Shown here in pieces: positions 7,152 through 57,058 of a DNA stretch of 62,917 nt. The notes under the pieces were generated by a model that did no database searches, was not told the origin of the DNA, and saw nothing but the letters and a program-made list of their open reading frames with translations. The translations under genes were made by a program, and so were the position numbers. Origin of the DNA: Methylococcaceae bacterium (GTDB lineage Bacteria > Pseudomonadota > Gammaproteobacteria > Methylococcales > Methylomonadaceae); assembly GCA_030627285.1 (NCBI GenBank), contig DAOUSJ010000001.1:1-62917 (forward strand), read 5' to 3'. Position 1 is the stretch's first letter. Each line of letters opens with the position of its first letter.

Positions 7152-7165
7152 AAATTAACTCATAT

Positions 7166-7482
7166 ATGAAAAAATACTTTTTTTTACTTTGCTAATTCCA
7201 ATTGTTTCTGGGTGTGCTAATCATGTTCCAATGGATTGGCAAGCAACAGGTGGAAGTAGAGGAGATGGTACAGTTAAATTATCTATCCAATATGGAATCA
7301 ATGTAGACCCTCAGTTAAATGAACAACAAGGCTTGGATTTAGCTAAGCAAAGATGTATAGCATGGGGTTATCAAGGAGCAGAAGCATTCGGAGGAGTAAC
7401 GAAAGTTTGTAATCAATTTGATAGATACATAGGATGTCTTGATAATTATGTGACAAAAGAATATCAGTGTCTTGTGCAATAA
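7166..7482 (+). pseudogene. Small secreted lipoprotein (possibly YecR-like), signal peptide separated from the body by a T8 tract
   Basis: ATG at 7166 gives MKKYFFLLC followed by a stop. With T9 instead of T8 (7178-7185) the product reads MKKYFFFTLLIPIVSGCANHV..., a canonical lipobox signal. The TTG start at 7189 leaves only 8 residues before the lipobox Cys. Confidence 0.55.
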
Positions 7483-7531
7483 ATTAAGAAGAAAAAAACC
7501 CAGCGGACGGCTACCAATATAATAAAGTGTG

Positions 7532-7539
7532 TTGCGCAA
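7532..7539. promoter_or_regulatory. Perfect 8-bp palindrome TTGCGCAA upstream of higB (candidate HigA operator)
   Basis: It lies between a TATAAT hexamer (7518-7523) and the higB ATG (7567). A related TTGTGCAAT occurs at 7472-7480. Confidence 0.2.
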
Positions 7540-7566
7540 TATGCAAAAGTAGTTAATAATCAGCTT

Positions 7567-7845
7567 ATGATTAAATCATTTAAGCACAAAGTGCTTCAGC
7601 TATTCTTTGATAAGGAAAGTACAGCAGGAATTAATGCGGCTCATAAATCAAAATTGAAAATGAGGTTAGTAGCATTAGATACGGCGATCTCTATTGAAGA
7701 TATAAACTTACCAGGTTTTCGTTTACATTCTTTAAAAGGGAATAAAGAAGGACTTTGGGCAATTGATGTAAATAAAAATTGGCGCATTACTTTTGAGTTT
7801 AGAGAAGGCGATGCGTATATTTTAGATTATGAGGATTATCACTAA
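7567..7845 (+). CDS. higB: HigB toxin (RelE/ParE superfamily, plasmid-maintenance killer type)
   Basis: 92 aa. It reads MIKSF..., ...LHSLKGNKEGLWAIDVNKNWRITFEF. The toxin-first order and the 1-nt TAATG overlap with the antitoxin support the call. Confidence 0.85.
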   Translation: MIKSFKHKVLQLFFDKESTAGINAAHKSKLKMRLVALDTAISIEDINLPGFRLHSLKGNKEGLWAIDVNKNWRITFEFREGDAYILDYEDYH

Positions 7846-8132
7846 TGAGTATGTATAACCCACCACATCCAGGGAAGTTTATTCGTGAAATTTATCTTGA
7901 ACCATTAAAGGTAAGCTATAGAGCTGTTGCTTTAAAATTACATGTTGCTCCATCAACATTTAACCGTTTAATTCAAGGACAAAGTAACATCAGCTCTGAA
8001 ATGGCATTAAGACTTTCAAAAACATTAGGGCGTAGCCCCGAAAGTTGGTTGGCAATGCAAAGCAATTACAATCTTTGGCAAGCTAAACAACACTTGAATT
8101 TAGACGAAGTAGAACAATTAGCAATATCCTAA
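7845..8132 (+). CDS. higA: HigA antitoxin (XRE-type HTH)
   Basis: 95 aa. PHPGKFIREIYLEPLKVSYRAVALKLHVAPSTFNRLIQGQSNISSEMALRLSK is the typical HigA antidote HTH. Confidence 0.85.
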   Translation: MSMYNPPHPGKFIREIYLEPLKVSYRAVALKLHVAPSTFNRLIQGQSNISSEMALRLSKTLGRSPESWLAMQSNYNLWQAKQHLNLDEVEQLAIS

Positions 8133-8471: not shown

Positions 8472-9647
8472 TCCTCGCTCCAAATCGCGTTGTATATCTA
8501 ACACATTTTCTAAACCTACAGAAATTCTGACTAAATTAGCTTTTATTCCTGCTAAAGCTCTTATTTCTGGAGCTAACCTACCATGAGTAGTGCTAGCAGG
8601 ATGAGTAATAGTGGTTTTCACATCACCTAAATTAGCCGTAATTGATAACATTTCGGTGGCATTAATTAATTGCCAAGCTTTATCTTTACCACCTTTTAAT
8701 TCAAAACTTACTACTCCACCAAAATGACTTTGTTGACGTTTAGCTAATTCATGTTGGGCATGAGATTTTAACCCAGGATAATGTACTTTTAACACTTGTG
8801 GTTGTTGTTCTAACCATTTAGCCAAGGTGAAAGCATTATCACAATGTGCTTGCATACGCACTGCTAAAGTTTCTAAACCACTAGCAAATACCCAAGCATT
8901 AAAAGCACTCATAGTTGCACCACCAGTACGCAAATATGGATAAATAAATTGGTCAATAATGTCATTGTTGGCTATTACCGCACCACCTACACATCGCCCT
9001 TGACCATCAATATATTTAGTGGCTGAATGCAAAACAATGTCTGCGCCTAGTGTTAATGGTTGTTGTAAAATTGGAGTACAAAACACATTATCTACAATCA
9101 ATAAACAATCATGCTTATGTGCAATCTTAGCTAAAGCAGCAATATCAACGATTTCAATCAATGGATTTGAGGGTGTTTCAACAAATAAAAACCTAGTATT
9201 AGGTTTAATAGCTGCTTCCCAAGCTACTAAATCAATTAAATTCACACAATCAGTGCTAACTCCAAATTTGCCAAAATAGTTTTGAAACAACAAAATTGTA
9301 TTGCCAAATACATTGCGTGAACATACAACATGATCGCCAGATTTTAATAAACCCATACCAACCGCCATAATAGCAGCCATGCCAGATGCAAATGCTACAC
9401 AACGTTCACCCTGTTCCATAAGAGCTAAACGTTGTTGAAATGCATCTACAGTTGGATTGGTAAATCTGGAATAAATATTGCCACTTTCTTGTCCAGTAAA
9501 CCTTAAAGCTGCTGCTTCTGCAGATTCAAACACATAACTAGAAGTTGCGTAAATTGGCAAACTATGTTCTTCTTCAGCACTACGTCTATGACCTACACGG
9601 ATGGCTTGAGTTTCAGGAGCATACTTATCCCAATCTATTTCCGTCAT
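8466..9647 (-). CDS. metZ: O-succinylhomoserine sulfhydrylase (Cys/Met-metabolism PLP enzyme)
   Basis: It belongs to the cystathionine gamma-synthase family (YSRFTNPTV; PLP-Lys region HSATKYIDGQG). It lies directly downstream of purF, as in pseudomonad metZ. Confidence 0.7.
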   Translation of the reverse strand: MTEIDWDKYAPETQAIRVGHRRSAEEEHSLPIYATSSYVFESAEAAALRFTGQESGNIYSRFTNPTVDAFQQRLALMEQGERCVAFASGMAAIMAVGMGLLKSGDHVVCSRNVFGNTILLFQNYFGKFGVSTDCVNLIDLVAWEAAIKPNTRFLFVETPSNPLIEIVDIAALAKIAHKHDCLLIVDNVFCTPILQQPLTLGADIVLHSATKYIDGQGRCVGGAVIANNDIIDQFIYPYLRTGGATMSAFNAWVFASGLETLAVRMQAHCDNAFTLAKWLEQQPQVLKVHYPGLKSHAQHELAKRQQSHFGGVVSFELKGGKDKAWQLINATEMLSITANLGDVKTTITHPASTTHGRLAPEIRALAGIKANLVRISVGLENVLDIQRDLERGL

Positions 9648-9675
9648 ATTAATTTCCTAAATATTATCAATTATT

Positions 9676-11172
9676 TTATATTTCTATATTAAAACTTTCA
9701 CGTTCGCGTGCTAACTGCGCCCCATCACGCCGTAAATTTTCAATATAGTCTAAATAAACTGCATCTATATCTCCAGTAATATATTCACTACTAAAACAAG
9801 AGGTATCAAAATGTTTAATTTTAGGATTTCCATGTTGCACAGCAGAAATTAAATCAGCTAAATTTTGGTAAATCATTTTATCAGCACCAATAAAAGCACT
9901 AATTTCATCTTCATTACGATTATGAGCAATCAATTCATTGGCTGCTGGCATATCAATACCATACACATTAGGGTATCTTACTGGTGGAGCGGCAGAAGCA
10001 AAATAAACTTTTTTAGCTCCAGCATCACGTGCCATTTGAATGATTTGTTTTGAAGTTGTGCCTCTAACAATAGAATCATCTACCAATAATACATTTTTGC
10101 CTTCAAATTCTAAATTAATTGCATTTAATTTTTGGCGCACGGATTTTTGGCGTTTAGTTTGTCCAGGCATAATAAAAGTACGCCCAATATAGCGATTTTT
10201 AATAAATCCTTCTCTAAATTTTACTCCAAGTTTATTTGCCATTTCTAAAGCTGAAGTACGACTAGTATCAGGAATTGGAATTACCACATCTATATCCTGT
10301 TCAGGCCAATCTTTCAGAATTTTTTCAGCTAGTTTTTCTCCCATCCGTAAACGCGCCTTATAAACTGAAATCCCATCAATCATTGAGTCAGGTCTAGCAA
10401 AATATACATATTCAAAAATACATGGGCAATGATCCACAATATCTGAACATTGTCTGGTATGTAATTTACCTGTGGATTCAATGAAAATTGCTTCACCTGG
10501 CTCTATATCACGTATTAACTTAAAATCTAACACATCTAAAGCTACATTTTCTGAAGCAATCATAAAATCAGAACCTTGCTCAGTTCTACGTTCCCCAAAT
10601 ACAATTGGACGAATCCCATGCGGATCTCTAAAACCTAAAATACCAAAACCTGCAATCATTACTACTACTGCATATGCACCTTTACAACGCTTGTGTACCG
10701 CTGCAACTGCTTGAAAAACATCTTCTGGAGTAATGCGTAATTTACCTAAACTTTGTAATTCATGCGCAAATATATTTAATAAAATTTCTGAATCTGAATC
10801 AGTATTAAGATGCCTTTGATCTTCTATAAATAACTCTTTTTTTAATACTTGAGTATTGGTCAAATTACCATTATGCGCTAGAGTTAGTCCAAAAGGTGAA
10901 TTTACATAAAATGGTTGCGCTTCGGCTGAACTTGTACATCCTGCAGTCGGATAACGCACATGTGCAATCCCCATATTGCCACGTAATTTCATCATATGGC
11001 TATCAGTAAATACATCTCTAGTTAAACCATTTTCTTTACGTAAATGCAACCTTCCATGTTCACAGGTCACAATTCCAGCAGCATCTTGCCCCCGATGTTG
11101 TAATACTGTTAACGCATCATAAAGTTCTTGATTTACATTTTGATGTGCCACAATACCTGCAATTCCACACAT
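9676..11172 (-). CDS. purF: Amidophosphoribosyltransferase
   Basis: The N-terminal MCGIAGIV (Ntn Cys) and the PRPP-binding motif [14 protein letters not shown] are present. Confidence 0.95.
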
Positions 11173-11230
11173 GTTTTTATCCTGCTATAAAATTTGAAGA
11201 GATGGAAATTATTAAAATTTAAAAACTACT

Positions 11231-11731
11231 TTAATAGCCTAAATTCTTGATATCGAAGGGTAGTATTTTTTCCAATTCCAAAGCTGCTGGATGAAAAACA
11301 GGGATCAATAATGATTGTTGCCAGATAGCATATTTATTGATTGGTGTTGATTCTATTAATAAAACACTCAATATAGTAAATAAAATCCCTCTAACTAAAC
11401 CTAAACATGTTCCAAAAAACCGATTTATTGATATTAAAGATAATTTTTCAACCCAGTAACTTAATAAATAATTTATGAAATGGCTACAAATTAAAATAAC
11501 CCCTAACACAATTACAAATGCACATATTTCTCGAACTGATGCAATTTCAATCATTGGAGCCAAAATATTAGCTAAATCATGATAATAAATCAGTCCTAAC
11601 CAAATTCCTATTATCCAACCAATTAACGATAGCATTTCTGCGACAAAACCACGCAAAAAGCCAATTAAAAGTGAAATAAAAATCACCACCATAATAGCAT
11701 AATCTATTTCATTCATATGGTTATATTCCAA
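11231..11731 (-). CDS. cvpA: Colicin V production membrane protein
   Basis: It is a four-TM protein of about 160 aa in the conserved dedD-cvpA-purF position. Confidence 0.8.
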   Translation of the reverse strand: MEYNHMNEIDYAIMVVIFISLLIGFLRGFVAEMLSLIGWIIGIWLGLIYYHDLANILAPMIEIASVREICAFVIVLGVILICSHFINYLLSYWVEKLSLISINRFFGTCLGLVRGILFTILSVLLIESTPINKYAIWQQSLLIPVFHPAALELEKILPFDIKNLGY

Positions 11732-11734
11732 TAA

Positions 11735-12415
11735 TTATTCTGGTACAGCAATGCTTTTAACATTATTTAATTGATTAATCCGACTTTGCATTATTTCTAC
11801 ACGTTGCCGATTTAACTCAGGGCCAACTTTTACTCTATAAACTTGACCTTTTTTAGTCCAACTAGAATCTACTCTAGCAGTAAAACCTTGTTGTATTAGT
11901 CTATTTTGTAACTTAATAGCATTATTTTGCTCTATAAAACTTGCAACTTGAATAAACCACCGCACTGCTTGTTGTTGCGCACTATTTTTAGGTGTATTCA
12001 AGCGTGGAGGAATAACTTGGTGTTGGACAACTTTAGGTTTATATTTTCGAGGAACTATTTTTTTATTTGTAACCTTAGTTGACTTAACAACTTCAATAGG
12101 CACAATTTTATCTTCTGGAATTATTTTAGTATTAGAATTGGGTTGAATAAGCTTTTGAACTGAAGATTCAACTTTATTCACATTAATATTAACGTTAGTG
12201 TTTTTTGAAGTATCTACTACTGCATCCAAATCTTCTGGTAACACCAAAGTTTTTAATGCCGGAGAAATATGATTTTGTGGAATTTCAAGTTCACTAATTT
12301 CTTGATTGGTTTCAATTTCTGGATCATCAAATAACATAGGTAAAAAAATAACAGCTAAAATAGTTACAACAACAGCACCAGCTACTCTGTTTTTTAACTC
12401 TTCATCTATTTCCAT
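11735..12415 (-). CDS. dedD: SPOR-domain cell-division protein (DedD-like)
   Basis: It has an N-terminal TM, a low-complexity linker and a C-terminal SPOR domain (WFIQVASF...YRVKVGP). It sits in the folC-dedD-cvpA context. Confidence 0.65.
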   Translation of the reverse strand: MEIDEELKNRVAGAVVVTILAVIFLPMLFDDPEIETNQEISELEIPQNHISPALKTLVLPEDLDAVVDTSKNTNVNINVNKVESSVQKLIQPNSNTKIIPEDKIVPIEVVKSTKVTNKKIVPRKYKPKVVQHQVIPPRLNTPKNSAQQQAVRWFIQVASFIEQNNAIKLQNRLIQQGFTARVDSSWTKKGQVYRVKVGPELNRQRVEIMQSRINQLNNVKSIAVPE

Positions 12416-20264: not shown

Positions 20265-20966
20265 ATGCACAAGATAATCATTTTTTTAGCAATTTTAGTT
20301 AGTTATAATTTTGCTTACGCTGATGTGTATAAATATGTTGATCCGCAAGGTAATACTCATTACACTGACGAACCTCCGAATAAGAAATATAAACGTATTA
20401 TTCGAACTAAAGTTATAACTAGAGTTCGCAACAAGGGTAATATTTTAGGTAAATTAGGAAAATTTAACCAACCATATATAGCTCCTCCAGCATCTAAAAA
20501 TAAATCCTATAGTTTTAGAGGCAAGACCAAACCTAGACGTTACAAAATTTCCAGAAGAGCAGCTTTTAATAAGCAAAAATATAGTCATTTAATTACTCAG
20601 GCGGCAAAAAAATTCCGTTTGAGTGAAGATCTATTGCATGCTGTGATCCAAACTGAATCTGCTTATAATCCTACTGCTGTTTCTCCAGCTGGAGCAGTAG
20701 GGTTAATGCAATTAATGCCAGCAACCGCAAGACGTTACGGAGTAAAAGCAAAGGATAGAAAAGATCCACGTCAAAGTATTAATGCAGGTGCAAATTATTT
20801 GCGGGATTTACTTAGAATGTTTAAGGGTAATAGAAATCTTGCAGTGGCAGGATACAATGCAGGCGAAGGAGCAGTAAGAAAATATAAAAACCAAATTCCA
20901 CCTTATAGAGAAACCCAAAACTATGTTAAAAAAATAAACGCTTTGCTGAGGTCACGATCTTATTAA
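20265..20966 (+). CDS. Lytic transglycosylase with an N-terminal DUF4124-like region
   Basis: A signal peptide is followed by VYKYVDPQGNTHYTDEPP (DUF4124-like). The SLT domain is present (IQTESAYNPTAVSPAGAVGLMQLMPATA, AGYNAGEGAV). Confidence 0.75.
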   Translation: MHKIIIFLAILVSYNFAYADVYKYVDPQGNTHYTDEPPNKKYKRIIRTKVITRVRNKGNILGKLGKFNQPYIAPPASKNKSYSFRGKTKPRRYKISRRAAFNKQKYSHLITQAAKKFRLSEDLLHAVIQTESAYNPTAVSPAGAVGLMQLMPATARRYGVKAKDRKDPRQSINAGANYLRDLLRMFKGNRNLAVAGYNAGEGAVRKYKNQIPPYRETQNYVKKINALLRSRSY

Positions 20967-23365
20967 GTAGCTTCGGCTTCCAACAAGCTCTGCTTTAATT
21001 CATCTAACAACTTTTCAGCCAATGATTTTTCAGCGAAATCACCTAATAACAAAGATTTTTTCAGTACTTTAATGGCAGCCTCAGGATTATTTAATTTTTG
21101 ATGTGCAACTGCCAAGTGGTATCTAAAAGTAGCTATCTTAGGTTCTTGTGCCACAATATTTTTAAATATCTGCAATACTTCTCTAGTTTGATTATTTTGC
21201 AACAACACCCAAGCATAAGTATCTAAAAAATAAGGATTTTCTGATTCTTCAAAAGTCTTAACTAAATTCAATGCTAATTTCAAATTTGCTTCTGATGGAA
21301 AATGTTCCATCAATATTGCAACTAAATTATTTGCTGCTAATTTAAGCTCAGGTTGTTGTTTAACTACATATTCATATTGCTCTACAGCTTCTTTATGCAA
21401 ATTATTTTTTTCATAAAAACCACCCAGACCAAGCCTTAAACTTATACTATTTGGTAATGCAAGTATTCCATCTTTTAAGATTTGGATTGTTTGTTCTGGT
21501 TGTTGTTGTTGGTCATATAACTGCGCTAATAATTCATAAAATTTAAACATTTTTGGGTTATTCGCAATAGCAGATTTTAATACCGCTGCAGCTTCATCAC
21601 TACGTTGAGATGCGATTAACAACTTACTTCTTAAAATAATTAAATAAGCATTATTAGGATGTTTTTCTGAAAATTCAGCCAAATATAGTAAAGATATATT
21701 TCTTTGATTTAAAGCTTCATAACAACTTATTAAAGCATTTAAAGCTTCTGATAAACTTGGCAAATCAATCAATACTTGTTTATAAGCTTCAATTGCAGCG
21801 GCATATTTATTCTGTCCCTGTAAAACCATACCTTGCAAATAACCAGCATAACTTTTTCCACCAGGCAAAGATGCAACTTTATCGACTATTTTTTGAGTAG
21901 CAACCCAATCACGTTGCAATAATTTAACTTTAGCTAATAATTTCAAGCCTCCAGCATGATTTGGAAACCCTGATAATGCTTGAAGCAAAATACTTTCAGC
22001 ACGCTTCAAATCATTCCCAGCTAACATTTGATTAACTACAGGCATTACTGCAAAAAAGTTGCTTGGATTAATATTGATTGCTTTATGAAAGTTTTCCAAG
22101 GCTAATTCTGGAGATTTATTCAAACTATAAGTTTGCGCCAACAAGACTAAAGCAGTATCTGATTTAGGATAATTACGTAAAATTGAATGTAAATTAGAAA
22201 TTACTTGCTCATAAAAACCAGCTTTAATATCCACTTCAGCCTGTAAAATAGACCCCTCTAAATGTTGTGAATCAACCTCTAAAACTTCTTTAACTAGCTG
22301 TTGCATTTTTGCAATATCATTTTCCTTCATAGCCAATTTAGCCAAAGCAATTTTAGCATCTAAAGCTGCTTGCGCATTGTCTAAATTATCCACAATCGAA
22401 ATCAAAGTTTCTTTTGCTTCAGGTAATTTATTTTGCCTAAAATATATCCTAGATAATCTAAAATGTAATCGCACTGCTTTAGGATGTATCTGCAAATAAG
22501 TTTTTATCAACTCCTCAAGTTTAGTCGATTTTTGAGATTCCATAAAATCTAACAATTGCAACTTAACTGTCACATTATCAGGATTAGCAACTATAGTTTT
22601 TTCCAAAATTGCTTGAGCTTTATCAAACCTTTTAGTTTGTGAATATATTTTTGCCAATGAATAAGCAAAATTTAACTGCTCTGGAAAACGTTGAATTAAA
22701 TCTATGTAATCCTTTTCTATAGCCACTAAATTTTTATCTCTAGCATGAATACTTAATCTAAGCAAATACAAATCCACTACATCAGCATGAGTTTTTAAAC
22801 TGTTTTCTAATAACTCTAAAGCCTGTGATGATGCATTATCTTGCACCAAAATTTGGATTTTTAATTTAATTGTCTCTAAATGTAATGGTGACTGTTGTAA
22901 AATTTGCTTAACCAATACTTCAGCATCAGAATTATTACCTTGATTAAATAAAATACTGCCTTTTAAACTTAAGGCATCAATATTAGTCGCATCTAAATCT
23001 AAAATTGCTTTAACTTGCAATAAACTTTCATCAATTTTTTTCCCAGCTAAAAACATTTTGCCTAATTTTAACCGTGCCAACACATGCTTAGGATTAAAGT
23101 TTACTGCGCGTGAATAATTAGCAAACATTTGCTTACCATTTTGTTCTTGCTCCTTAATTAAACCCAAATAATAATAAGCTTCTGCATATTTAGCATCAAT
23201 TTGTAAGGCATTTTTAAATTCTAAGGACGCTTTTTTATATGCTTTTTGATCGTATAAAGATTTTCCATTATCAATAAACGTCTGCATTTTCTCTTCAGGA
23301 TCACTGCAACCCTGTAAAGCCAGAATAAGTAACGCAATTGCAATTTTTTGTTTATGTACTGTCAT
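20963..23365 (-). CDS. prsT: PEP-CTERM/exosortase-system TPR-repeat lipoprotein (PrsT-like)
   Basis: 800 aa. It has the lipobox LALQGCS and TPR repeats throughout. It lies directly downstream of the exosortase gene. Confidence 0.7.
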   Translation of the reverse strand: MTVHKQKIAIALLILALQGCSDPEEKMQTFIDNGKSLYDQKAYKKASLEFKNALQIDAKYAEAYYYLGLIKEQEQNGKQMFANYSRAVNFNPKHVLARLKLGKMFLAGKKIDESLLQVKAILDLDATNIDALSLKGSILFNQGNNSDAEVLVKQILQQSPLHLETIKLKIQILVQDNASSQALELLENSLKTHADVVDLYLLRLSIHARDKNLVAIEKDYIDLIQRFPEQLNFAYSLAKIYSQTKRFDKAQAILEKTIVANPDNVTVKLQLLDFMESQKSTKLEELIKTYLQIHPKAVRLHFRLSRIYFRQNKLPEAKETLISIVDNLDNAQAALDAKIALAKLAMKENDIAKMQQLVKEVLEVDSQHLEGSILQAEVDIKAGFYEQVISNLHSILRNYPKSDTALVLLAQTYSLNKSPELALENFHKAININPSNFFAVMPVVNQMLAGNDLKRAESILLQALSGFPNHAGGLKLLAKVKLLQRDWVATQKIVDKVASLPGGKSYAGYLQGMVLQGQNKYAAAIEAYKQVLIDLPSLSEALNALISCYEALNQRNISLLYLAEFSEKHPNNAYLIILRSKLLIASQRSDEAAAVLKSAIANNPKMFKFYELLAQLYDQQQQPEQTIQILKDGILALPNSISLRLGLGGFYEKNNLHKEAVEQYEYVVKQQPELKLAANNLVAILMEHFPSEANLKLALNLVKTFEESENPYFLDTYAWVLLQNNQTREVLQIFKNIVAQEPKIATFRYHLAVAHQKLNNPEAAIKVLKKSLLLGDFAEKSLAEKLLDELKQSLLEAEAT

Positions 23366-23431
23366 TTATGTATGAATATATAATAGAAAATTGATATGTA
23401 ACCCATAAAATAAAACCATATTTAACCTAGG

Positions 23432-24982
23432 CTAATTAGGAATATATTCTGGCAATATAGGCAATAAATTTTGTAAAAATCCTTGCAAACGCTGGTCTGC
23501 AATTTCAATTGATTCAGTTGCTAATACTGGTGTAGTTAAACGCACTAAAGCTCCATCAGTTCGATTTAAAAATAACGCATCATTGAATAAATACCACTTC
23601 ATATAATATTCATTTGCCATCTTACGACCACGTTGCTGAAACCAGTAATAAACTAATTGTTGATAATTATCCTTTTTAATCACAATTCTATTCACTGCTA
23701 ACTTATCTAATTGTAACCTCTCTATAGCACTTATTTGCCAACCTCCACCTGGAATACAAACTCGTGGTGAATGTGGTGACACGCCTTTTCTTTGAGAAGC
23801 ATAATAAGCTACATAAAAATTTATTGGTGCAGGCTGTTCATTGGTACGATAATCAGCTGAAATATAATCAGAAACTTGCAAAATATTTAACACATTTTTT
23901 TCTAAAACTGTTTGTTTACCTTGCCATTTAGATAACTGCATTGGGAACTGTGGAAAAGTCTTCCTTTTTGGAATTATTTCGCTTCTATCATCTAATGAAA
24001 AAATTCCAATCGCAGTAAGTATCAACACCATATTAACTGCAACTAAAGGGTAAGAAATAGCTCTATATTTAATAGTTCCAACATTATTACTGGGAATATT
24101 TTCCACCAAACCAAAAACTTCCATCAAAGGCTTGGGTGTTTTAGATATTTTCACCATTAAAATCATTTCCAAAATTAAAATACACATACAAGCAACAAAT
24201 ATTATCCAACCTTCAAAATCATGTAAAAAACCCTCTGCAACCGCATTGCCCCACTGATTAACTAATAATCCAGTAATTCCAATCCGCAAGCTATTCATGA
24301 ATAACGTAATTGGTATTGTGGTTAAAAATAACAATATGCGTTTCCATAACACTACATTGAACATATACGCGCAAATAAAGCCTAAACCCATCAGCGGAAA
24401 TAAATATCTCAAACCACTGCAAGCTTCAACTACTTGCAATTGATATACACCCAAATCAATTACATTGCCTTCTAAATATACTGGTATTTGACACCAGCGA
24501 ATAAACATTACGCCTAATTCAGAGGATAATAATTGTAATTCTGCGGATAATATAGCTTCTAAAAAATATGGTAATGGAATTGCAAACACTAACAGTAATA
24601 TTGGAATTAAAACTAATTTAATTGCTTTAAAACCCATTAATGTCAGTGCTACCCCAAGTAAAACTCCAATTAAGGCATAATCAATTAAAATAAATAATGC
24701 ACTAATTTCACCAATAATGAATACTAATAATGCTAATAAAACTACTATAAAACCTATCCAAGAAGGTGAAAATTCAATCTTTTCAATTAATCCGCGTTGC
24801 TGCCAAATAAAATAGCCACTGACAAATGGTAACATATATCCATGACTATATTCTTCTTGTTTATCCCAACGCAACATTAACTCACTAACTCCGCCCCAAA
24901 AGTTAATAGTAATTAATCCAATTGCAAGTATTATCCATAGCCATTGCAACCAATTGATACGCCAAGTTATATGTGTATTCAT
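23432..24982 (-). CDS. Exosortase (XrtA-like) fused to a C-terminal EpsI-family domain
   Basis: The N-terminal polytopic domain carries the exosortase signatures EEYSHGYMLP, VVEACSGLRY (catalytic Cys), MNSLRI (Arg) and LHDFEGW (His). The C-terminal half carries the EpsI signature SPHSPRVCIPGGGW. Confidence 0.8.
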   Translation of the reverse strand: MNTHITWRINWLQWLWIILAIGLITINFWGGVSELMLRWDKQEEYSHGYMLPFVSGYFIWQQRGLIEKIEFSPSWIGFIVVLLALLVFIIGEISALFILIDYALIGVLLGVALTLMGFKAIKLVLIPILLLVFAIPLPYFLEAILSAELQLLSSELGVMFIRWCQIPVYLEGNVIDLGVYQLQVVEACSGLRYLFPLMGLGFICAYMFNVVLWKRILLFLTTIPITLFMNSLRIGITGLLVNQWGNAVAEGFLHDFEGWIIFVACMCILILEMILMVKISKTPKPLMEVFGLVENIPSNNVGTIKYRAISYPLVAVNMVLILTAIGIFSLDDRSEIIPKRKTFPQFPMQLSKWQGKQTVLEKNVLNILQVSDYISADYRTNEQPAPINFYVAYYASQRKGVSPHSPRVCIPGGGWQISAIERLQLDKLAVNRIVIKKDNYQQLVYYWFQQRGRKMANEYYMKWYLFNDALFLNRTDGALVRLTTPVLATESIEIADQRLQGFLQNLLPILPEYIPN

Positions 24983-24990
24983 AAGTTTTA

Positions 24991-26118
24991 TTATTTAATA
25001 TTCGCTAACAAAAATTCACTTTGATGCCATTTTAAAATTCTTAATATCTTAGTACTTGCATGTGTTAAAACTAAATTACAACCTGAAGCTATAACATGTT
25101 TGTATAAAATTAACACTAAGCCGATAAAAGCCCCATCAATTAAACTTGTTTTATCCAAATTAAGTTCAATATTTTTTTCACTGATAGCAGCTTGCAAAAA
25201 AATATCTCGTAACGGCTGAATTGTATCTACACAAGCAATTCCAGATAAAGATATTTCTATACTATCAGTTTCTATTTGCGTATAGATTAATTTTCTTAAC
25301 ACAGCTGAATTAAACAACCCAGTGACCTTAGTTGTTTGCATCCAAAGCCAATATGGCAACACCCGAGTAGCTAATAAACCTAAAAATTGCAATCCATCAC
25401 TATAATAACGTTGCCATAAATGTGGCTCTTGGTAAATTCGCCACAACCATTCTAAACCCCATTTTTGAAATGTTAGTGGCGCGCGGATTACTGAACCTGC
25501 AAAAAAATTAATTACCGCACCTAAATGACTAATTATTGGCGCATTTAATTGTTGTCGATTCTGTTCAATCCAAGCTTGGCCTTTTTTTGCACCTAAAGCA
25601 ACTATCAAAAAATCAATCTCGTGTTGATTAATAAATTCAATAATTTCAGGCGTACTCATAGCATCAACACTACCAAAACCCGGCACATAATGTCCAACTG
25701 CTTCAAGTCCAGAACTAGCTTGATTAATAATCTTACATGCTTTAGCTCCCATACCTTCTTCACCACCGAAAAAAAACACTTTTAAGGCTTTATCTGTGGT
25801 TTTTGCATCTAACACAGCAATTAAATCTGAGCCTGCAACTCGTTCAGGTAAGGGAATATTTAATAATTTTGCAATTAAAATTAGCGGAAAACCATCAGCT
25901 ATAGAAAGTTCACTATTAATAACTGAGTGTTTAAATTGTACATCTGCTTGTGCCGCACATAAAAAATTCAAATTTGGAGTAGATAAAAAACAACGGCGTT
26001 GATTTACCGCAGTTTCAAGAATAATTTCAACAGTTTGGGACATATCAACTGCATCAAAAGGCAACCCTAATAAACACCAAACATTGCGTGAAAAATCTTG
26101 CTTTATAATCTCATTCAT
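24991..26118 (-). CDS. WecB/TagA/CpsF-family glycosyltransferase with a C-terminal STAS-like domain
   Basis: The N-terminal 260 aa or so resemble the TagA family (PFDAV..., PNLNFL, ADGFPL, FFFGG..., GAKKGQAWI). The last 110 aa or so follow a STAS pattern (IEISLSGIACVDTIQPLRD...IELNLDKTSLIDGAFIGLVLILYKH...GCNLVLTHASTKILRILK). Confidence 0.7.
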   Translation of the reverse strand: MNEIIKQDFSRNVWCLLGLPFDAVDMSQTVEIILETAVNQRRCFLSTPNLNFLCAAQADVQFKHSVINSELSIADGFPLILIAKLLNIPLPERVAGSDLIAVLDAKTTDKALKVFFFGGEEGMGAKACKIINQASSGLEAVGHYVPGFGSVDAMSTPEIIEFINQHEIDFLIVALGAKKGQAWIEQNRQQLNAPIISHLGAVINFFAGSVIRAPLTFQKWGLEWLWRIYQEPHLWQRYYSDGLQFLGLLATRVLPYWLWMQTTKVTGLFNSAVLRKLIYTQIETDSIEISLSGIACVDTIQPLRDIFLQAAISEKNIELNLDKTSLIDGAFIGLVLILYKHVIASGCNLVLTHASTKILRILKWHQSEFLLANIK

Positions 26119-27295
26119 CTCTTTCTGTCCGTACCCATGCTGTTTGGCGTTTAAATATAAATGCTAAATAAACTGTTAATTTAGCCAAGATATATTTTGG
26201 AATACTGCATAATTCTTTAAAAGTTAATATGTCTTTACCGTAGTTTTTCCACGTCAGTATCAACATTAAACTAAAAATTAGAAAATTAAGCCCTAAAATT
26301 GCAAATACCAAAAACCCCCCAGTAAATAACATCATAATGCCACTGACACTTAAAGTACATATTACTAACAAAACTAATAATGCTAATGGTGGTACCGATA
26401 AATCCAATGCCAGCCCTAACAATTTCCAATTCTTAGTAACAATTGCTTGAGTTAATAATTTTGGCACTTGTTGTTTAATAGTCAATAAATGTCCATGTTC
26501 CCAGCGAGTACGTTGTGTTTTTTCAGCAGTCGCTTGGGCTGGAAAATAACTTGTTACTAACGCCGAATGACAAAATTTTGGAACAAAATTATTTAAGCTA
26601 CAATCTATGCCTAATTGCATATCTTCAACAATATTCGCACTACCTAATTGTACTTGATCAAATGTTTGCCATGGAAATGCCATCCCAGTACCAGTTAAAG
26701 TTATCGGTAAATTTAAATATTGCATTGCTAAAGGACGAACTTCATTTTTAACTCGCCATGCAAATCCAGCAATTTTTTGTTTAATACTCGCATTTTCTGG
26801 GAGTAGCATCATATACAATGCTTGCGCGGGCTGATTAGTTATAAGCACTTGGTTATACAAACGTTTCAATGCTAATTCTGCAGGAATACAATCAGCATCC
26901 ATAATTATTAACACCTCTAATCCAGCTACATGCTGGTGTAAATACTGAATCCCATAATCTAAAGCAAAACCTTTGCTACGTTGATGTTCATTAACACGTT
27001 CTAATACTGTAACCTTATAACTACGTGCAATTTCGGCAGTATTATCGGTGCAATTATCTGCAACCACTACAATTAATTCCGCTGGTACTTGAGTAAGCAA
27101 CGCCTGCAATGTCTTAGCAATTCCCACAGCTTCATTATGTGCTGGAATCAACACCCTAGCATTAACTATCTCTACTGGCAATTCATCAATTGATGCTTTA
27201 GGTTTGAAAATTTGTACTATCAATAATTGCAAACTCACTACCGACAATGGTATTGAGATCAAAATAACAATTATCCATAAAAAACTATTTAACAT
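26111..27295 (-). CDS. Membrane-embedded family-2 glycosyltransferase, processive synthase type
   Basis: It has an N-terminal TM, ADNCTD, a DxD motif (MDADC), a TED-like VEDMQLG and the Q-x-x-R-W motif QRTRWEHG. Several C-terminal TM helices follow. Confidence 0.8.
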   Translation of the reverse strand: MLNSFLWIIVILISIPLSVVSLQLLIVQIFKPKASIDELPVEIVNARVLIPAHNEAVGIAKTLQALLTQVPAELIVVVADNCTDNTAEIARSYKVTVLERVNEHQRSKGFALDYGIQYLHQHVAGLEVLIIMDADCIPAELALKRLYNQVLITNQPAQALYMMLLPENASIKQKIAGFAWRVKNEVRPLAMQYLNLPITLTGTGMAFPWQTFDQVQLGSANIVEDMQLGIDCSLNNFVPKFCHSALVTSYFPAQATAEKTQRTRWEHGHLLTIKQQVPKLLTQAIVTKNWKLLGLALDLSVPPLALLVLLVICTLSVSGIMMLFTGGFLVFAILGLNFLIFSLMLILTWKNYGKDILTFKELCSIPKYILAKLTVYLAFIFKRQTAWVRTERDE

Positions 27296-28499
27296 TTTCT
27301 ATCGCCGCTTTAAATAAATTAGCTAATTTTTTAGCTTCAATATCTATATTATGTTGTTGCAGTACGCGCTGAAATCCTTGCTCACTAATATTAGCTAAAG
27401 TGGTTGCATCTGCTTGTAATAACTCCTGCATTGCTAAAGTCAAAGCCATCACATCACCTGCAACCACCAACCAACCAGTATTATTTGCTTGCACTAATTC
27501 AGGAATACCTGCCACATAGGTTGAAATAACTGGTTTCTTTAAAGCCATCGCCTCCATAATAACTACTGGTAAACCTTCCGCAAAACTCGGCAAAACTAAA
27601 GCTTTAGCCTGAATTAATAATTTTTTTACTTCTGCACTGCTAATCCAACCAGTAATTTTAACTAATTCTTCCAAACCATAATTACGTATCCGCTGTTCAA
27701 TTTCAGCTCGCATTGGGCCATCACCAGCTAATACCAACTGGCAATTCACGCCTTGGAGATGTAAATTATTCAAGGCCTCAATTAATAATAATTGACCTTT
27801 TTGTTCACATAAACGCCCTACACAAATTAACTTTGTATTTTCCTGAATTTGAACTGGTTCGGTAGTAAAAAAATCTGCCTCTAAACCACAATGAATAATA
27901 TTTACCTTAGACCATTGCTCTAAAGGAATCCAACGAAATAATTGACTCCTTCCATAAGAACTAATTGCCACTACAAATTTACTATGCTGAACTTTCTCTG
28001 CCAAAGCAATAAATTGCGGTTTATCAAATTCTTCTGGACCATGCACAGTAAAACTATAACTTACTCCACCCAATAAATGCGCCAACATTACCACTGTGGT
28101 TGAATTGGTGCCAAAATGTGCATGTATATGTTCTACTTCAGTTTGTTGTTGCAACTTTAATAACACGCAACTTTCGGCTAAATAAAATAAATGCAGCAAT
28201 AAACCACGCTCAGAATGCCAACCTATTTTTAATGCCTTCAATAAAACCTTAAAAAACACCAATGGTGCCGATACAAAAACCTTTATAATGCTCGAAATTA
28301 TTGCAGTAATCGGCAAAGCTAAAATTGCTTGAGTTTTTTCAGATTCTGTCAAATCCACTGGATCTACTAGTTCGGCTTGATTAGTTCTAATTGCAAAACG
28401 TTGCACTGAATAACCTAATTTTTCCAAAGCCAAAATTTCTCTACGAATAAAACTATGACTAACTTTAGGATATTGATTAATAAAATAGGCAATTTTCAT
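27285..28499 (-). CDS. Family-4 (GT-B) glycosyltransferase
   Basis: The E-x7-E region is present (PSFAEGLPVVIMEAMALKKPVIST). The N-terminus MKIAYFINQYPKVSHSFIRRE is WcaL-like. Confidence 0.8.
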   Translation of the reverse strand: MKIAYFINQYPKVSHSFIRREILALEKLGYSVQRFAIRTNQAELVDPVDLTESEKTQAILALPITAIISSIIKVFVSAPLVFFKVLLKALKIGWHSERGLLLHLFYLAESCVLLKLQQQTEVEHIHAHFGTNSTTVVMLAHLLGGVSYSFTVHGPEEFDKPQFIALAEKVQHSKFVVAISSYGRSQLFRWIPLEQWSKVNIIHCGLEADFFTTEPVQIQENTKLICVGRLCEQKGQLLLIEALNNLHLQGVNCQLVLAGDGPMRAEIEQRIRNYGLEELVKITGWISSAEVKKLLIQAKALVLPSFAEGLPVVIMEAMALKKPVISTYVAGIPELVQANNTGWLVVAGDVMALTLAMQELLQADATTLANISEQGFQRVLQQHNIDIEAKKLANLFKAAIENVK

Positions 28500-28511
28500 A
28501 GGCTTTAAAAT

Positions 28512-29300
28512 TTAATATAGAAATGGTTCATAAGGAGTATTTTGCAAACAATCAAACACTTCTGCGTAATTAAGCACTGATGCTTCTAAACTATTAGGTG
28601 ACATTTTTTGTTGTTGGCTAGTTACATTAAATGGTTTGATTTCCAAAAATTCACATAACTTTTGATTCCACGCCTGAATTGATTCAGGACTGGCAAAATA
28701 TTGTTCATATTCAATCTTTAGTATGCTGTGATTCACTAAACTTTGTATAAAATCTTGTTCACGCTGAGTTTCTGAATAATAAATTGCCAATTTTTGCATT
28801 AAATCATTAGTATCTATTTGAATTTTTTCAAACAATGTATTATTTTTTTCATAAGATACAGATTGTTGTTTAATTTGCATTAAAACCAAGGAAATATAAC
28901 GCTTTAAAATATTTTTACGCTGCAAATAAACTATTTTTATTTGCGGATTTTGACGAATATATTCTGCAGTATTAGTTTTTTCTATGGTCACCAAAAAATC
29001 TTTAATACCAACACTTTTAACTGTATGCTGAAATTTAAAATTTATTTTTCTATTAGTTTTTAAATGTTGCCAAGCAGAATAACCTTGAGCTAAATAAAAA
29101 AACCAGCCATGTTTATAAATACAGTTTAAATAGGCCTCATAACCTTTATGTTTAAATAAATACTGATAAACTAATTTATTAGTAGTAGTCCATTCGCCTA
29201 AAACTTCGCCATAATTTACACAATTTGCACTTAAATTTAGGGTATTGGAAATATAATTACTCCCACTACGTCCACTAGTAAAAATCAGATGTTGTTGCAT
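28512..29300 (-). CDS. Sulfotransferase (Stf0-like, PAPS-dependent)
   Basis: A 5'-phosphosulfate-binding loop (FTSGRSGSNY) and a 3'-phosphate-binding-like motif (VYLQRKNILKRYISL) are present. Confidence 0.6.
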   Translation of the reverse strand: MQQHLIFTSGRSGSNYISNTLNLSANCVNYGEVLGEWTTTNKLVYQYLFKHKGYEAYLNCIYKHGWFFYLAQGYSAWQHLKTNRKINFKFQHTVKSVGIKDFLVTIEKTNTAEYIRQNPQIKIVYLQRKNILKRYISLVLMQIKQQSVSYEKNNTLFEKIQIDTNDLMQKLAIYYSETQREQDFIQSLVNHSILKIEYEQYFASPESIQAWNQKLCEFLEIKPFNVTSQQQKMSPNSLEASVLNYAEVFDCLQNTPYEPFLY

Positions 29301-29302
29301 GT

Positions 29303-30022
29303 TTATTTAAGATTCCCAGCATGTAAACCACACTCTTTTTTGGCTTCAGATTCCCACCACCAACGACCTTGCCTTTCATGTTGATTCGGTAAAATAGCCC
29401 GCGTACAAGGCTCACAACCAATACTTATAAACCCTTGTTTATGTAATGAATTATATGGTAAAGCATAAGCTTCAATATAATCCCAAACTTGTCTAGAACT
29501 CCAATTCAACAATGGATTAAATTTAATTAAATTTTGTTCAGGTATAGAAAATGCTTGATCTATTTCAACTTCAACTAAATCTTGACGTGTTTCTAAACTT
29601 TGATCTTTACGTTGTCCAGTAATCCAAGCATCTAAAGTAAATAATTTACCTTTTAGTGGCTCTACTTTTCTTAAATTGCAACACTCTTGATGCCCATCAT
29701 TATAAAAACTGAACCAACCTTTATTAGTGACTAAATCTGCAATTTCACTCGCATTAGGACTTAAACACTCAATTTTTATTCCATAATGTTCTCTTACTTT
29801 TTCAATGAAACGGTAAGTTTCAGGATGTAATCTACCTGTATCTAAAGAAAAAATTTGCATATCAGGACGTATTTGTAATGCCATATCAATTAGCACCACA
29901 TCTTCTGCACCACTAAACGATAATGCAATATTGTCAAAAGCAGCTAATGCAGCTCTGAGTATTTTACCTGGAGATTGTCCTGCTAATTCAATTTGGTGCG
30001 CTTGAATATCAAATGTAGTCAT
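29303..30022 (-). CDS. cysH: Adenylylsulfate (APS) reductase, Fe-S cluster type of the PAPS-reductase family
   Basis: The CC pair ([13 protein letters not shown]) plus CxxC (SIGCEPCT) is diagnostic of the 4Fe-4S APS reductases. The catalytic C-terminal KKECGLH is present. Confidence 0.85.
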
Positions 30023-30054: not shown

Positions 30055-31647
30055 TTAATGTTGCATAAAATATTGGTTTAAAAATTCATCTAAACTTAAC
30101 AGATCACTAGTCTCAAGTTCAAATTGTTGTTGCTGTGATGTTAACATCATTTGGTCAAATTGTTGCTGTAATGCAGAATTTAAAGGTGCTTGTTGAGTAA
30201 AATAATTTGCATGTTGTTTTGAAGTAGATAAACTAAAACCACTATAAGACTGTTGCTGTTTTTGCATGGCAGCTAATATTTTTGCAGATGGAGTTAAAGC
30301 AGAATTATTTACACATTGTTGTTGCCAATTTAATGCGCTTGTATACGGTTTATTAATTTTATCAGCATCTAAAACCGCACATATATCCTGCATATCCGTT
30401 AAAATCTGACTAGACCAAGCCTGTAAACTAATATTTTTCCCATGTTTATTCAGCTGCAAATTAGGCTTTCTACCTTGATATGCAACTAGTAATTGATTGT
30501 TATTATTTATTTTTTGCTCATGACTGCTTTGTAAAGGACTCTCATTTAATAAGCAATGCAATAAAAAAGCTTCGATGAAATTAGCCTGATGTTGATTAAT
30601 TCCAATTGGCTCGAAAATATTAACATCTAACGAACGAATTTCAATATATTGTACCCCACGATATTTTAAAGCTAAAGTTGGTTTTTCACCTGAAGCTGAA
30701 ATTTGTTTAGGTCTTACAGTACTATAATATTCATTTTCTATCTGCAACTGATTGGAATTAAGTTGTTGATATGCTCCATTTGACTTAATTCCAATAGCCT
30801 CATAATCAACATCAGGAGTATTCATAGCCATATTCAAACTTTCTACATAACCATTTAGGGTATTAAAATCAATTTTTAACTGGGATTGTTTATCATTTTT
30901 ATAACCTATATCACTCATTCTTAATGAGGTTGCATATGGTTGATACAATGTATGAGGATCAAATTCTTGAAAAGAATTACTTAAATTGTGCGGACGATTA
31001 TGAAAAAATTGTTTACAAATTGCTGGTGAAGCTCCAAATAAATACAACAACAACCAGCCTTGACGTTGAAAATTTCTAATTAAAGCAAAATATGCGGCTG
31101 AAATAAATTCTTCTAAACTTATCCCACTTTCATCTTGTGCATATAATTCCTGAAATAATGGCATTGGTACTGAATAATTGAAATGAACCCCCGCTATAGC
31201 CTGCATAGAACGACCATACCGATGCGATAATCCAAGCCGATAAATTTGTTTCATTTGCCCTATATTAGATTTTCCATAATCTGCAATCTTAATGCTATTT
31301 TCATTTTTAATTCCACAAGGCATACTAGTAGCTAACAAGATTTCATTATCTAAGTTTTTATAGACATGCCGATGAATATTATGCAGAAATTTTAAAGTTT
31401 CAACACTATTAACAAACGGTGGCGTAATAAACTCCAATAAAGATTCCGAATAATCAGTAGTAATATGTGGATGAGTTAAAGCTGAACCTAAAAACTTGGG
31501 GTGTGGTGTTTGCGCAATCAAACCTTGGGCTGAAATTCGCAAGCTTTCTTTTTCTATACCTTTCAAACCATTACATAATAAATCCTGTTTATTATTGGCA
31601 GTTATTTTTTGGAAATGCGCTGCAAGTTGCGTGGTCAAAGTCGTCAT
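30055..31647 (-). CDS. gshA: Glutamate-cysteine ligase (E. coli type)
   Basis: 530 aa. GIEKESLRI, THPHITTDYSESLLEFITPP and RMSDIGY are present. Confidence 0.9.
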   Translation of the reverse strand: MTTLTTQLAAHFQKITANNKQDLLCNGLKGIEKESLRISAQGLIAQTPHPKFLGSALTHPHITTDYSESLLEFITPPFVNSVETLKFLHNIHRHVYKNLDNEILLATSMPCGIKNENSIKIADYGKSNIGQMKQIYRLGLSHRYGRSMQAIAGVHFNYSVPMPLFQELYAQDESGISLEEFISAAYFALIRNFQRQGWLLLYLFGASPAICKQFFHNRPHNLSNSFQEFDPHTLYQPYATSLRMSDIGYKNDKQSQLKIDFNTLNGYVESLNMAMNTPDVDYEAIGIKSNGAYQQLNSNQLQIENEYYSTVRPKQISASGEKPTLALKYRGVQYIEIRSLDVNIFEPIGINQHQANFIEAFLLHCLLNESPLQSSHEQKINNNNQLLVAYQGRKPNLQLNKHGKNISLQAWSSQILTDMQDICAVLDADKINKPYTSALNWQQQCVNNSALTPSAKILAAMQKQQQSYSGFSLSTSKQHANYFTQQAPLNSALQQQFDQMMLTSQQQQFELETSDLLSLDEFLNQYFMQH

Positions 31648-50444: not shown

Positions 50445-50543
50445 TTATTAATTATTTGAAATTACACACTATTAATAATGTATAAATATGTAATGATACA
50501 ATATTGTATATGCCAATTAATACTCACAAATCAAGAAGCTCCC

Positions 50544-56973: not shown

Positions 56974-57058
56974 TGGTACCGAGGGTCGGAATCGAACCGA
57001 CACTCCCGAAGGAACTGGATTTTGAATCCAGCGCGTCTACCAGTTTCACCACCCCGGC
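56974..57058 (-). tRNA. tRNA-Leu (anticodon CAA), class II with a long variable arm
   Basis: The reverse complement reads GCCGGGGTGGTGAAACTGGTAGACGCGCTGGATTCAAAATCCAGTTCCTTCGGGAGTGTCGGTTCGATTCCGACCCTCGGTACCA. It folds as a cloverleaf with CTGGA/TCCAG as the anticodon stem, a TTCGATT T-loop and an encoded CCA. The acceptor stem has G1-U72 and G5-U68 wobbles. Confidence 0.9.

Follow-up and report, generated by a model that had tools for sequence, protein, structure and literature searches.

The 62,917-nt stretch of DNA of a Methylococcaceae bacterium analysed here (contig DAOUSJ010000001.1; hereafter, the window) contains a group of closely packed minus-strand genes encoding an exosortase, a tetratricopeptide repeat (TPR) lipoprotein, three glycosyltransferases (GTs) and a putative sulfotransferase (ST), with cysH and gshA located next to them (Table 1). 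A first-pass annotation had described seven of these genes, from cysH to the TPR gene, as one operon for a sulfated exopolysaccharide (EPS). The open reading frame (ORF) listing and the translations were checked against the coordinates given there, and the listing reproduces each of the seven genes exactly. Essentially every ORF of the window with a length of at least 90 aa was annotated. According to our analysis, the locus is a compact copy of a catalogued but experimentally unstudied cluster that recurs in methane-oxidising and related bacteria and is built around the exosortase XrtD.

Table 1. Genes of the exosortase locus and its two sulfur- and glutathione-related neighbours.
Product	Coordinates	Strand	Basis and remarks
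PrsT-like TPR lipoprotein, 800 aa	20963-23365	minus	TPR families, lipobox, conserved XrtD downstream partner
XrtD exosortase with C-terminal EpsI fusion, 516 aa	23432-24982	minus	TIGR04152 and EpsI TIGR02914
GT26 (WecG/TagA/CpsF) glycosyltransferase with C-terminal STAS, 375 aa	24991-26118	minus	PF03808, STAS_2
Integral-membrane GT2, synthase-like (COG1215, QxxRW), 394 aa	26111-27295	minus	Glyco_tranf_2_3, Glyco_trans_2_3
GT4 glycosyltransferase (EpsE/WcaL-like), 404 aa	27285-28499	minus	Glycos_transf_1
NodH-like PAPS-type sulfotransferase (ST), predicted, 262 aa	28512-29300	minus	Profile, fold, invariant motifs
cysH, assimilatory APS reductase, 239 aa	29303-30022	minus	TIGR02055; judged outside the module
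gshA, glutamate-cysteine ligase	30055-31647	minus	TIGR01434; co-directional housekeeping neighbour, context only

The gaps between neighbouring genes are 2 nt (cysH–ST), 12 nt (ST–GT4), 8 nt (TagA–XrtD) and 66 nt (XrtD–TPR), and two pairs of genes overlap, GT4/GT2 by 11 nt and GT2/TagA by 8 nt; the three spacings reported earlier (cysH–ST, GT4/GT2 and GT2/TagA) are thus borne out. The packing had been taken as the sign of a seven-gene unit. The tight spacing is real, but it fails to delimit such a functional unit, since cysH is preceded, at a distance of only 32 nt, by gshA, which was omitted from the first-pass annotation and is equally close and co-directional. A consensus scan for promoters and terminators between 20 and 32.5 kb gave fewer matches than shuffled sequences and is uninformative in this AT-rich DNA; with this limitation, it revealed no terminator-like site between gshA, cysH and the ST gene. 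The GC content of the locus is 0.31-0.35, the same as that of the flanks (overall GC is about 33%). A horizontal-transfer island was considered and rejected because the locus does not differ from its flanks in GC content.

The exosortase scores 578.7 bits against the XrtD model TIGR04152 (cut-off 400), with residues 37-515 aligned to profile positions 2-486 of 486, and its EpsI part scores 132 against the cut-off of 42.8 with TIGR02914. The XrtA model TIGR03109 reaches 173 bits on the same protein, which is under its cut-off of 208. By these profile scores, the exosortase is XrtD, the VPLPA-CTERM-specific subtype, and not a generic exosortase. The motifs Cys-x-Gly, Asn-x-x-Arg and His-x-x-x-Gly of the EpsH family (Haft et al. 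2006, PMC1569441) are present as C188-x-G190, N230-x-x-R233 and H254-x-x-x-G258 and do not vary among the twelve XrtD proteins of alignment A1. The best matches in the protein search, with 62-68% identity, are XrtD proteins of Methylobacter, Methyloglobulus and Methyloprofundus, and the best match in the scan of GTDB species representatives has 66% identity; the genome of the window is itself absent from the representatives scanned. The protein search returned about 8000 XrtD homologue matches, and 537 XrtD loci were found among GTDB species representatives. The name 'VPLPA-CTERM-specific exosortase XrtD' is routine in Methylobacter, Methyloglobulus, Methyloprofundus, Methylovulum and Methylosoma.

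No ORF with a VPLPA- or PEP-CTERM tail was found in the window, either by regular expression or by a hidden Markov model of 17 relatives' tails. Tails of the VPLPA type, VP[LIV]PAAxWLFGSAL...RRK, are encoded close to XrtD in 20 of the relatives' loci (loci are numbered with the letter L) and also in L001, and the sorting system is therefore real in the relatives. In Methyloprofundus sedimenti (L005), a gene for a VPLPA-CTERM-tailed protein (9156-9821) is located inside the cassette, between the TagA/STAS and XrtD genes; in L001, such a gene (11171-12259) is located between the ST and TPR genes. One more XrtD locus (L050) lies in a 5.3-Mb record named 'Methylocaldum sp. GT1BB plasmid unnamed', the size of which suggests a chromosome mislabelled as a plasmid.

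Synteny was analysed by tblastn of the window proteins against the 80 best of the 537 XrtD loci and in individually examined neighbourhoods. The neighbourhoods of the ST family comprised 69 loci; a metagenome scan with the ST profile yielded 64 loci beyond those of the closest ST homologues, L114 among them. A Pfam census covered 141 ORFs, taken from 18 loci and lying no more than 10 kb upstream of XrtD. A TPR homologue starts no more than 700 nt after XrtD in 38 of the 64 loci with enough downstream DNA, and TagA/STAS directly precedes XrtD in 25 of 65. The full GT4-GT2-TagA/STAS-XrtD-TPR core, with order and strand kept and identities of 50-63%, is found in L005, L009, L013, L015, L016 and L035, in all of which a GT4 orthologue (59-63% identity) is directly upstream of GT2. 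Five more loci (L007, L011, L014, L018 and L020) have the GT2-TagA-XrtD-TPR order. In L013, the core is bare: its five genes, plus a second GT2 paralogue between GT2 and TagA/STAS, are flanked by unrelated genes, for a MacB-type ABC transporter on one side and for ManC and AcrB on the other.

The exact ST-GT4-GT2-TagA/STAS-XrtD-TPR order was observed in a single locus, L114, which is a metagenome contig. The identities to the window proteins are 38% for ST, 55% for GT4, 47% for GT2, 44% for TagA/STAS, 47% for XrtD and 30% for TPR. The 10 kb upstream of this locus encode two Sulfotransfer_2 proteins, a Wzy_C-domain protein (of the Wzy polymerase/O-antigen ligase family), a Wzx flippase, a GT4, two GT2s, a Sulfotransfer_1/3 protein and an acyltransferase. 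ST is adjacent to GT4 in L087, L096 and L114 and lies near GT4/GT2(/TagA) genes in about ten further contigs; the closest ST homologues sit in large polysaccharide clusters with extra sulfotransferases, and the clusters of L087 and L088 contain a Wzx flippase. The order in L001 is GT4-GT2-ST-VPLPA-CTERM protein-TPR. Sulfotransferases of other families are located upstream of XrtD in 12 further loci. The repeated six-gene order of L114 and these 12 loci indicate that the link between sulfotransferase, glycosyltransferases and exosortase proposed in the first-pass annotation is no chance association.

The most frequent products in the census are GT2 (38), GT1/4 (22), membrane GT2 (20), WecG (15), STAS (14) and sulfotransferases (9). 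Wza, Wzc, Wzx, Wzy and Bac_transf are below the top 25 families, and Wzx, Wzy, Wza and Wzc are each rare or absent (fewer than 4 of the 141 ORFs). The annotation of ORFs confirmed the earlier observation that these four components are lacking at the locus: neither they nor a priming transferase were found anywhere in the window, including the immediate flanks of the locus. Given the rarity of Wza and Wzc across the 18 loci, the lack of these two is normal for the XrtD type of locus within 10 kb upstream of XrtD, and it can no longer be regarded as a special feature of the window. The combination of genes had been regarded as undescribed, and this novelty is not supported: XrtD is a catalogued exosortase subtype, and several Methylococcales genomes share the cassette GT4-GT2-TagA/STAS-XrtD-TPR. 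The locus is in part a routinely annotated cluster type, a possibility that the first-pass annotation had itself named as telling against its proposal, in that the annotation of XrtD is routine and the cassette is recurrent. The relatives usually have larger clusters, which extend more than 10 kb upstream. This comparison leads us to see in the window locus the conserved 3' end of a polysaccharide cluster that is linked to XrtD, recurs among genomes and is often multiply sulfated; the variable 5' part of the cluster is missing.

In the membrane GT2, D80, D133-x-D135 (D133-A-D135), G202TGMAFPW and Q261-R-T-R-W265 are invariant among 26 homologues, and of V223-E224-D225, all 26 have the Glu and 23 have the Asp. 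The DxD, TED-like (here VED) and QRTRW motifs with flanking transmembrane (TM) helices, noted previously, are thus present and conserved. The best NCBIfam match is EpsU (164 bits, under the cut-off of 700), the similarity to the PgaC model is marginal (E = 3e-8, 33 bits against a cut-off of 422), and only chondroitin synthase was found among PDB sequences, also marginally. An AlphaFold (AF2) model was obtained with a pLDDT of 86.4. Its top Foldseek matches are the Chlorella-virus and Xenopus hyaluronan synthases (HAS, E = 7.7e-11), BcsA (E = 2e-9) and yeast Chs1, and the fold also matches the non-processive membrane mannosyltransferase PcManGT. The TM content is about three helices, namely one N-terminal helix and two or three C-terminal ones (304-325, 329-353 and a short helix at 290-299); a C-terminal hydrophobic block spans 291-350. 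Structurally characterised GT2 synthases have 6-8 TM helices, and the window GT2 has fewer than the six or more helices that make up the channel of synthase-translocases. No PgaD- or BcsB-like partner subunit for it is encoded in the locus, and the ORF annotation of locus and window revealed neither an outer-membrane porin nor a domain of the PilZ or GIL type (receptors of cyclic di-GMP, c-di-GMP). Judging by the motifs and the modelled HAS/BcsA-like fold, the GT2 can be called synthase-like, as was suggested earlier, and processive polymerisation or export is only its candidate role. The claim of a self-sufficient synthase pathway is not supported: Wzx and a Wzy_C-domain protein are encoded in L114, the closest relative with full-length synteny, and the GT2 has only about three TM helices. 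In L013 (6165-8699), two tandem paralogues of the synthase-like GT2 (398 aa) can be noted between GT4 and TagA/STAS.

The only Pfam match of the ST is Sulfotransfer_3, with 20.5 bits, which is under the gathering score of 27; profile searches gave no match to the Stf0 Pfam model and none to NCBIfam models. A database search gathered a family of 61 proteins with no more than 51% identity, the names of which include sulfotransferase, Stf0-domain and NodH. Some of the homologues pass PF13469 or PF00685, and cyanobacterial members are found in Gloeothece, Merismopedia, Synechocystis and Cyanobium. In a 30-sequence alignment, R11-S12-G13-S14 of the 5'-phosphosulfate loop (5'-PSB) and R128 and S137 of the 3'-phosphate site (3'-PB) are invariant. 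The family profile matches the lipopolysaccharide sulfotransferase NodH (PDB 9vki) with E = 1.8e-6, and the RSGS and R..N.L..Y.S motifs are aligned. The AlphaFold (AF2) model has a pLDDT of 91.4, and eight of its nine best PDB fold matches are sulfotransferases dependent on 3'-phosphoadenosine-5'-phosphosulfate (PAPS), with TM-scores of 0.39-0.45; the matches include TPST1/2, Stf0 (1tex), an Alicyclobacillus sulfotransferase and 3-OST, and the top one is tyrosylprotein sulfotransferase. On the evidence of profile and model, the ST is a genuine PAPS-type sulfotransferase, NodH-like by profile, with a predicted activity. The earlier reading as a sulfotransferase is supported by the NodH match, the fold and the invariant RSGS, Arg and Ser residues; for the name 'Stf0-like', 'NodH-like' is a better choice. 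The ST has no signal peptide or TM segment and hence should act in the cytoplasm. A protein acceptor is possible, given that tyrosylprotein sulfotransferase is the top fold match; the context of glycosyltransferase genes favours a carbohydrate acceptor, and a sulfated-glycan reading of the locus is plausible.

The GT4 matches Glycos_transf_1 with E = 5e-36 and EpsE NF041876 with 215.7 bits, under the cut-off of 400. The TagA gene product matches PF03808 with E = 2.4e-45 and, by residues 16-238, the PDB entry of TarA (7mpk, E = 3.9e-32); the STAS_2 tail is weak (E = 4.5e-5, under the gathering score). In Methylobacter luteus (L004/L019, 7915-9978), a DDE transposase insertion splits the TagA/STAS gene just upstream of XrtD, so that in this cultured strain the fusion is disrupted and the WecG domain (335 aa) is parted from the STAS domain (131 aa). 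The TPR protein consists of TPR families over residues ~20-772 and begins with the N-terminus MTVHKQKIAIALLILALQGC, in which the lipobox LQGC occupies residues 17-20. Its best NCBIfam match is PrsT TIGR02917, with 235.7 bits against the equivalog cut-off of 312.2. According to these profile data, it is a PrsT-like paralogue specific to XrtD loci and not the PrsT equivalog; of the earlier description as a PrsT-like TPR lipoprotein, the TPR repeats, the lipobox and the exosortase linkage are retained, and only the score required of a PrsT equivalog is not reached.

The cysH product passes TIGR02055 (thioredoxin-dependent reductase of adenosine 5'-phosphosulfate, APS) with 254.7 bits against a cut-off of 235.3; it has the Fe-S cysteines CC...CxxC (ECCNLRK, GCEPCT) and the C-terminal ECGLH. 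The gshA product scores 582 bits with TIGR01434 (cut-off 393). Both genes are missing from the 10-kb surroundings of all 80 XrtD loci and all 69 ST-family loci that were compared (0 of 149 in total). The reaction of APS reductase on APS yields sulfite and no PAPS, and APS kinase is its competitor for this substrate. A role of cysH in the supply of the sulfate donor was considered and rejected, because the enzyme reduces APS to sulfite and there is no conserved linkage in the 149 loci. For the same reasons cysH, which had been included in the module, is most likely a neighbour only. In this genome it probably shares a transcript with the module, and this might tie the expression of the module to the sulfur status.

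Taken together, these data are best explained by a trimmed locus of the VPLPA-CTERM exosortase XrtD, the host being a divergent Methylococcales bacterium of low GC content; to this reading we assign a probability of roughly 0.6. The FabA protein of the window clusters with proteins of Methylococcales and Methylobacter at 90% identity or more, in keeping with this placement at order level. With the same degree of confidence, the functional unit would comprise six genes, those of ST, GT4, membrane GT2, TagA-like GT26/STAS, XrtD-EpsI and the TPR lipoprotein, with cysH and gshA excluded. The data establish the gene identities, the conserved catalytic motifs, the folds and the cross-genome synteny. 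As to which substrates are used, what is sulfated, how the product is exported and how all this is coupled to XrtD, we infer the following scheme. The three glycosyltransferases would assemble a glycan at the cytoplasmic face of the membrane on a lipid-linked primer made elsewhere. TagA-family enzymes use acceptors linked to undecaprenyl diphosphate (Und-PP), for which reason an unlinked WecA-type primer is assumed. The HAS/BcsA-like GT2 would elongate the chain and may aid its membrane crossing, and the cytoplasmic NodH-like ST would O-sulfate the glycan using PAPS provided by genes outside the window. Export may be GT2-assisted or may proceed via unlinked Wzx/Wzy. XrtD, as a Cys/Arg/His membrane transpeptidase, would remove the VPLPA-CTERM anchors of secreted proteins encoded elsewhere, and the TPR lipoprotein could serve as a periplasmic scaffold.

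Several points weigh against this scheme. The window contains no VPLPA-CTERM substrate, PAPS-synthesis gene (cysC and cysDN were not detected in it by ORF annotation), priming transferase or export component, and the function of the locus in this genome is therefore unproven. The full core is present in a minority of loci, namely in 4 of the 50 genome-scan loci with at least 4 kb of upstream DNA (GT4 identity at least 50%) and in six loci overall. The 2-nt cysH–ST junction without a detectable terminator suggests that cysH is co-transcribed with the module. Finally, we know of no member of this system that was characterised experimentally.

The model of the first-pass annotation, in which all seven genes including cysH form a dedicated operon for a self-sufficient, synthase-dependent sulfated EPS coupled to exosortase sorting, is unlikely, although it fares best among the alternatives. 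It agrees with the tight gaps and overlaps up to the cysH–ST junction, at which no terminator was detected, with the full set of processive-synthase motifs and the HAS/BcsA-like fold of the GT2, and with the bare core cassette of L013. The lipoprotein, made up of TPR repeats throughout, is similar to the TPR scaffolds known from synthase-dependent systems, and the window lacks Wzx/Wzy/Wza/Wzc, each of which accounts for fewer than 4 of the 141 ORFs upstream of XrtD. However, cysH is linked to neither XrtD nor the ST family in any of the 149 loci, its enzyme removes APS and makes no PAPS, and gshA is just as tightly co-directional. The GT2 has about three TM helices instead of the 6-8 of solved synthases, an outer-membrane porin and a c-di-GMP receptor are absent, and TagA-type enzymes use lipid-linked acceptors. 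In addition, L114 carries Wzx together with a Wzy_C-domain protein, and L087 and L088 carry Wzx.

It is also conceivable, with a slightly lower probability, that the GT4-GT2-TagA/STAS core makes a conserved glycan or glycolipid, sulfated in this genome, which is the acceptor or anchor to which XrtD attaches VPLPA-CTERM proteins, and that EPS is made by the variable upstream genes of the relatives. The core adjoins XrtD and keeps its order while the upstream content varies widely, it persists without the variable part in the window and L013, and VPLPA-CTERM genes occur within the cassette in L005 and L001. In Methylobacillus, disruption of EpsH left the output of the EPS methanolan unaffected (PMC1569441), which implies that the exosortase is no EPS-synthesis enzyme. 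On the other hand, there is no direct evidence for any exosortase acceptor; TagA is adjacent to XrtD in only about 40% of the XrtD loci and the whole core in fewer, and a universal pathway should be more constant. That the window locus is the minimal form of a protein-to-glycan anchoring machine, with the core product as the exosortase acceptor, and not an EPS factory, appears marginally less probable. Least probable is that a larger XrtD EPS cluster has decayed in a genome under reduction and that what is left of it no longer gives a product: the relatives' clusters run more than 10 kb upstream, substrates are missing from the window, a frameshift splits mutS elsewhere in it, its GC content is about 33%, and the housekeeping proteins TrpB, LptB, CysH and FolE are singletons at 90% identity (four of five tested), but all six ORFs are full length, the catalytic and binding motifs of XrtD, GT2 and ST are intact, and L013 has the same bare core.

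The surroundings of the locus are of a housekeeping character. Beyond the TPR gene, there are a convergent lytic transglycosylase gene, purT, hemH, folE, trpFBA, accD and folC; beyond cysH, there are gshA and genes for pterin dehydratase, opp permeases, mlaFEDB, kdsDC, lptCAB and rpoN. The 3' end of the TPR gene shares 4 nt with the lytic transglycosylase gene (SLT domain; 20265-20966, plus strand), which runs towards it; no such transglycosylase gene was found next to XrtD in the 80 loci. The mutS gene (47902-50444, minus strand) is split into two overlapping ORFs with the break near 48303-48315; the 713-aa ORF contains domains I-IV and the first half of domain V, and the 137-aa ORF the rest of domain V. 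This can be explained either by a frameshift pseudogene, implying a mutator or a reductive genome, or by a sequencing error. A patch with 29% GC (6441-8132, plus strand) encodes a partial AAA_31/ParA-like ORF (6441-7151), a YecR-like lipoprotein (7189-7482) and a HigB-like toxin paired with an HTH antitoxin (7567-8132). It lies between housekeeping genes and probably represents a small insert of mobile or accessory nature. At 58203-59336 (minus strand), a 97-aa ORF matching the C-terminal quarter of C-5 cytosine DNA methylase (profile positions 243-323 of 324) and then a 242-aa ORF without a Pfam match adjoin tRNA-Leu(CAA) (56974-57058); the two ORFs have the look of what remains of a degraded restriction-modification system close to a tRNA gene. 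The stretch of lowest GC in the window, about 28%, encodes a hybrid sensor kinase of 892 aa (HisKA, HATPase, receiver, Hpt; 50478-53156, plus strand), and a protein with a CAP/SCP domain (cysteine-rich secretory protein family; 60764-61372, plus strand) is encoded between ispF and truD.

As a single locus, the region is an ordinary member of the XrtD class, and its link with cysH fails to hold. The general pattern of the XrtD cassette and sulfotransferases may merit a dedicated study. Exosortase systems are widespread. XrtD loci carry a recurrent cassette of GT4, synthase-like GT2, TagA/STAS and TPR lipoprotein, with sulfotransferases as frequent accessories, an indication that the surface glycans of methanotrophs and sulfur oxidisers may be sulfated. 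The six-gene version of the window, like L013, is a small and well-delimited unit that would lend itself to heterologous expression or, in culturable relatives such as Methylobacter luteus and Methyloprofundus sedimenti, to mutagenesis.

When the locus is compared with known systems, a Wzx/Wzy-dependent EPS locus differs from it in that the window has no Wzx, Wzy, polysaccharide co-polymerase (PCP; Wzc), outer-membrane polysaccharide export protein (OPX; Wza) or priming transferase. With HAS, BcsA, chitin synthase, PgaC and NodC, the window GT2 shares D, DxD, (T/V)ED and QxxRW, with a GT-A domain between TM helices. Unlike these synthases, it has only about three TM helices and is encoded beside two further glycosyltransferases, and its counterpart in L114 is encoded near Wzx and the Wzy_C-domain protein. 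As in synthase-dependent EPS secretion, the window has a synthase-like GT2 and a TPR lipoprotein; it has no porin, PilZ or GIL. The ST shares with the NodH/Stf0 sulfotransferases the 5'-PSB motif RSGS, the 3'-PB Arg...Ser, the profile match to 9vki and the fold match to 1tex, but belongs to a distinct small family of 61 proteins, and its own matches are below the Pfam gathering scores. The synthase-dependent O-antigen of Salmonella O:54 is made with a WecA primer, the ManNAc adaptor WbbE and the GT2 synthase WbbF, that is, a TagA/WecG-type or adaptor transferase acting on Und-PP-GlcNAc together with a HAS-like membrane GT2. By analogy, it could be the best precedent for cooperation of a TagA-like and a synthase-like enzyme; it has no exosortase, TPR lipoprotein or sulfotransferase. 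Synechan (xss genes) is a cyanobacterial sulfated EPS whose cluster has dedicated sulfotransferases; it is of the Wzx/Wzy type and has no exosortase D.

The XrtA/PEP-CTERM EPS loci (PMC1569441) share with the window the EpsH-family motifs, the EpsI domain, a PrsT-type TPR protein and the linkage to EPS genes. They differ in that the XrtA TIGR03109 (173 versus 208) and PrsT scores of the window proteins are under the cut-offs, that PrsK/PrsR, a chain-length determinant, a tyrosine kinase and Wza are absent from the window, and that the sorting signal in the relatives is VPLPA and not PEP. The closest system is XrtD/VPLPA-CTERM (TIGR04152), which was defined computationally by Haft and colleagues. 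The window exosortase passes its curated cut-off, has the EpsI fusion, precedes a long TPR lipoprotein and is embedded among glycosyltransferases, and the relatives carry proteins with VP[LIV]PAAxWLFGSAL...RRK tails nearby. Compared with other XrtD loci, the window copy has no substrate gene within 62.9 kb, is reduced to three glycosyltransferases and one sulfotransferase, and is wedged between housekeeping genes, with cysH/gshA on one side and the lytic transglycosylase on the other.

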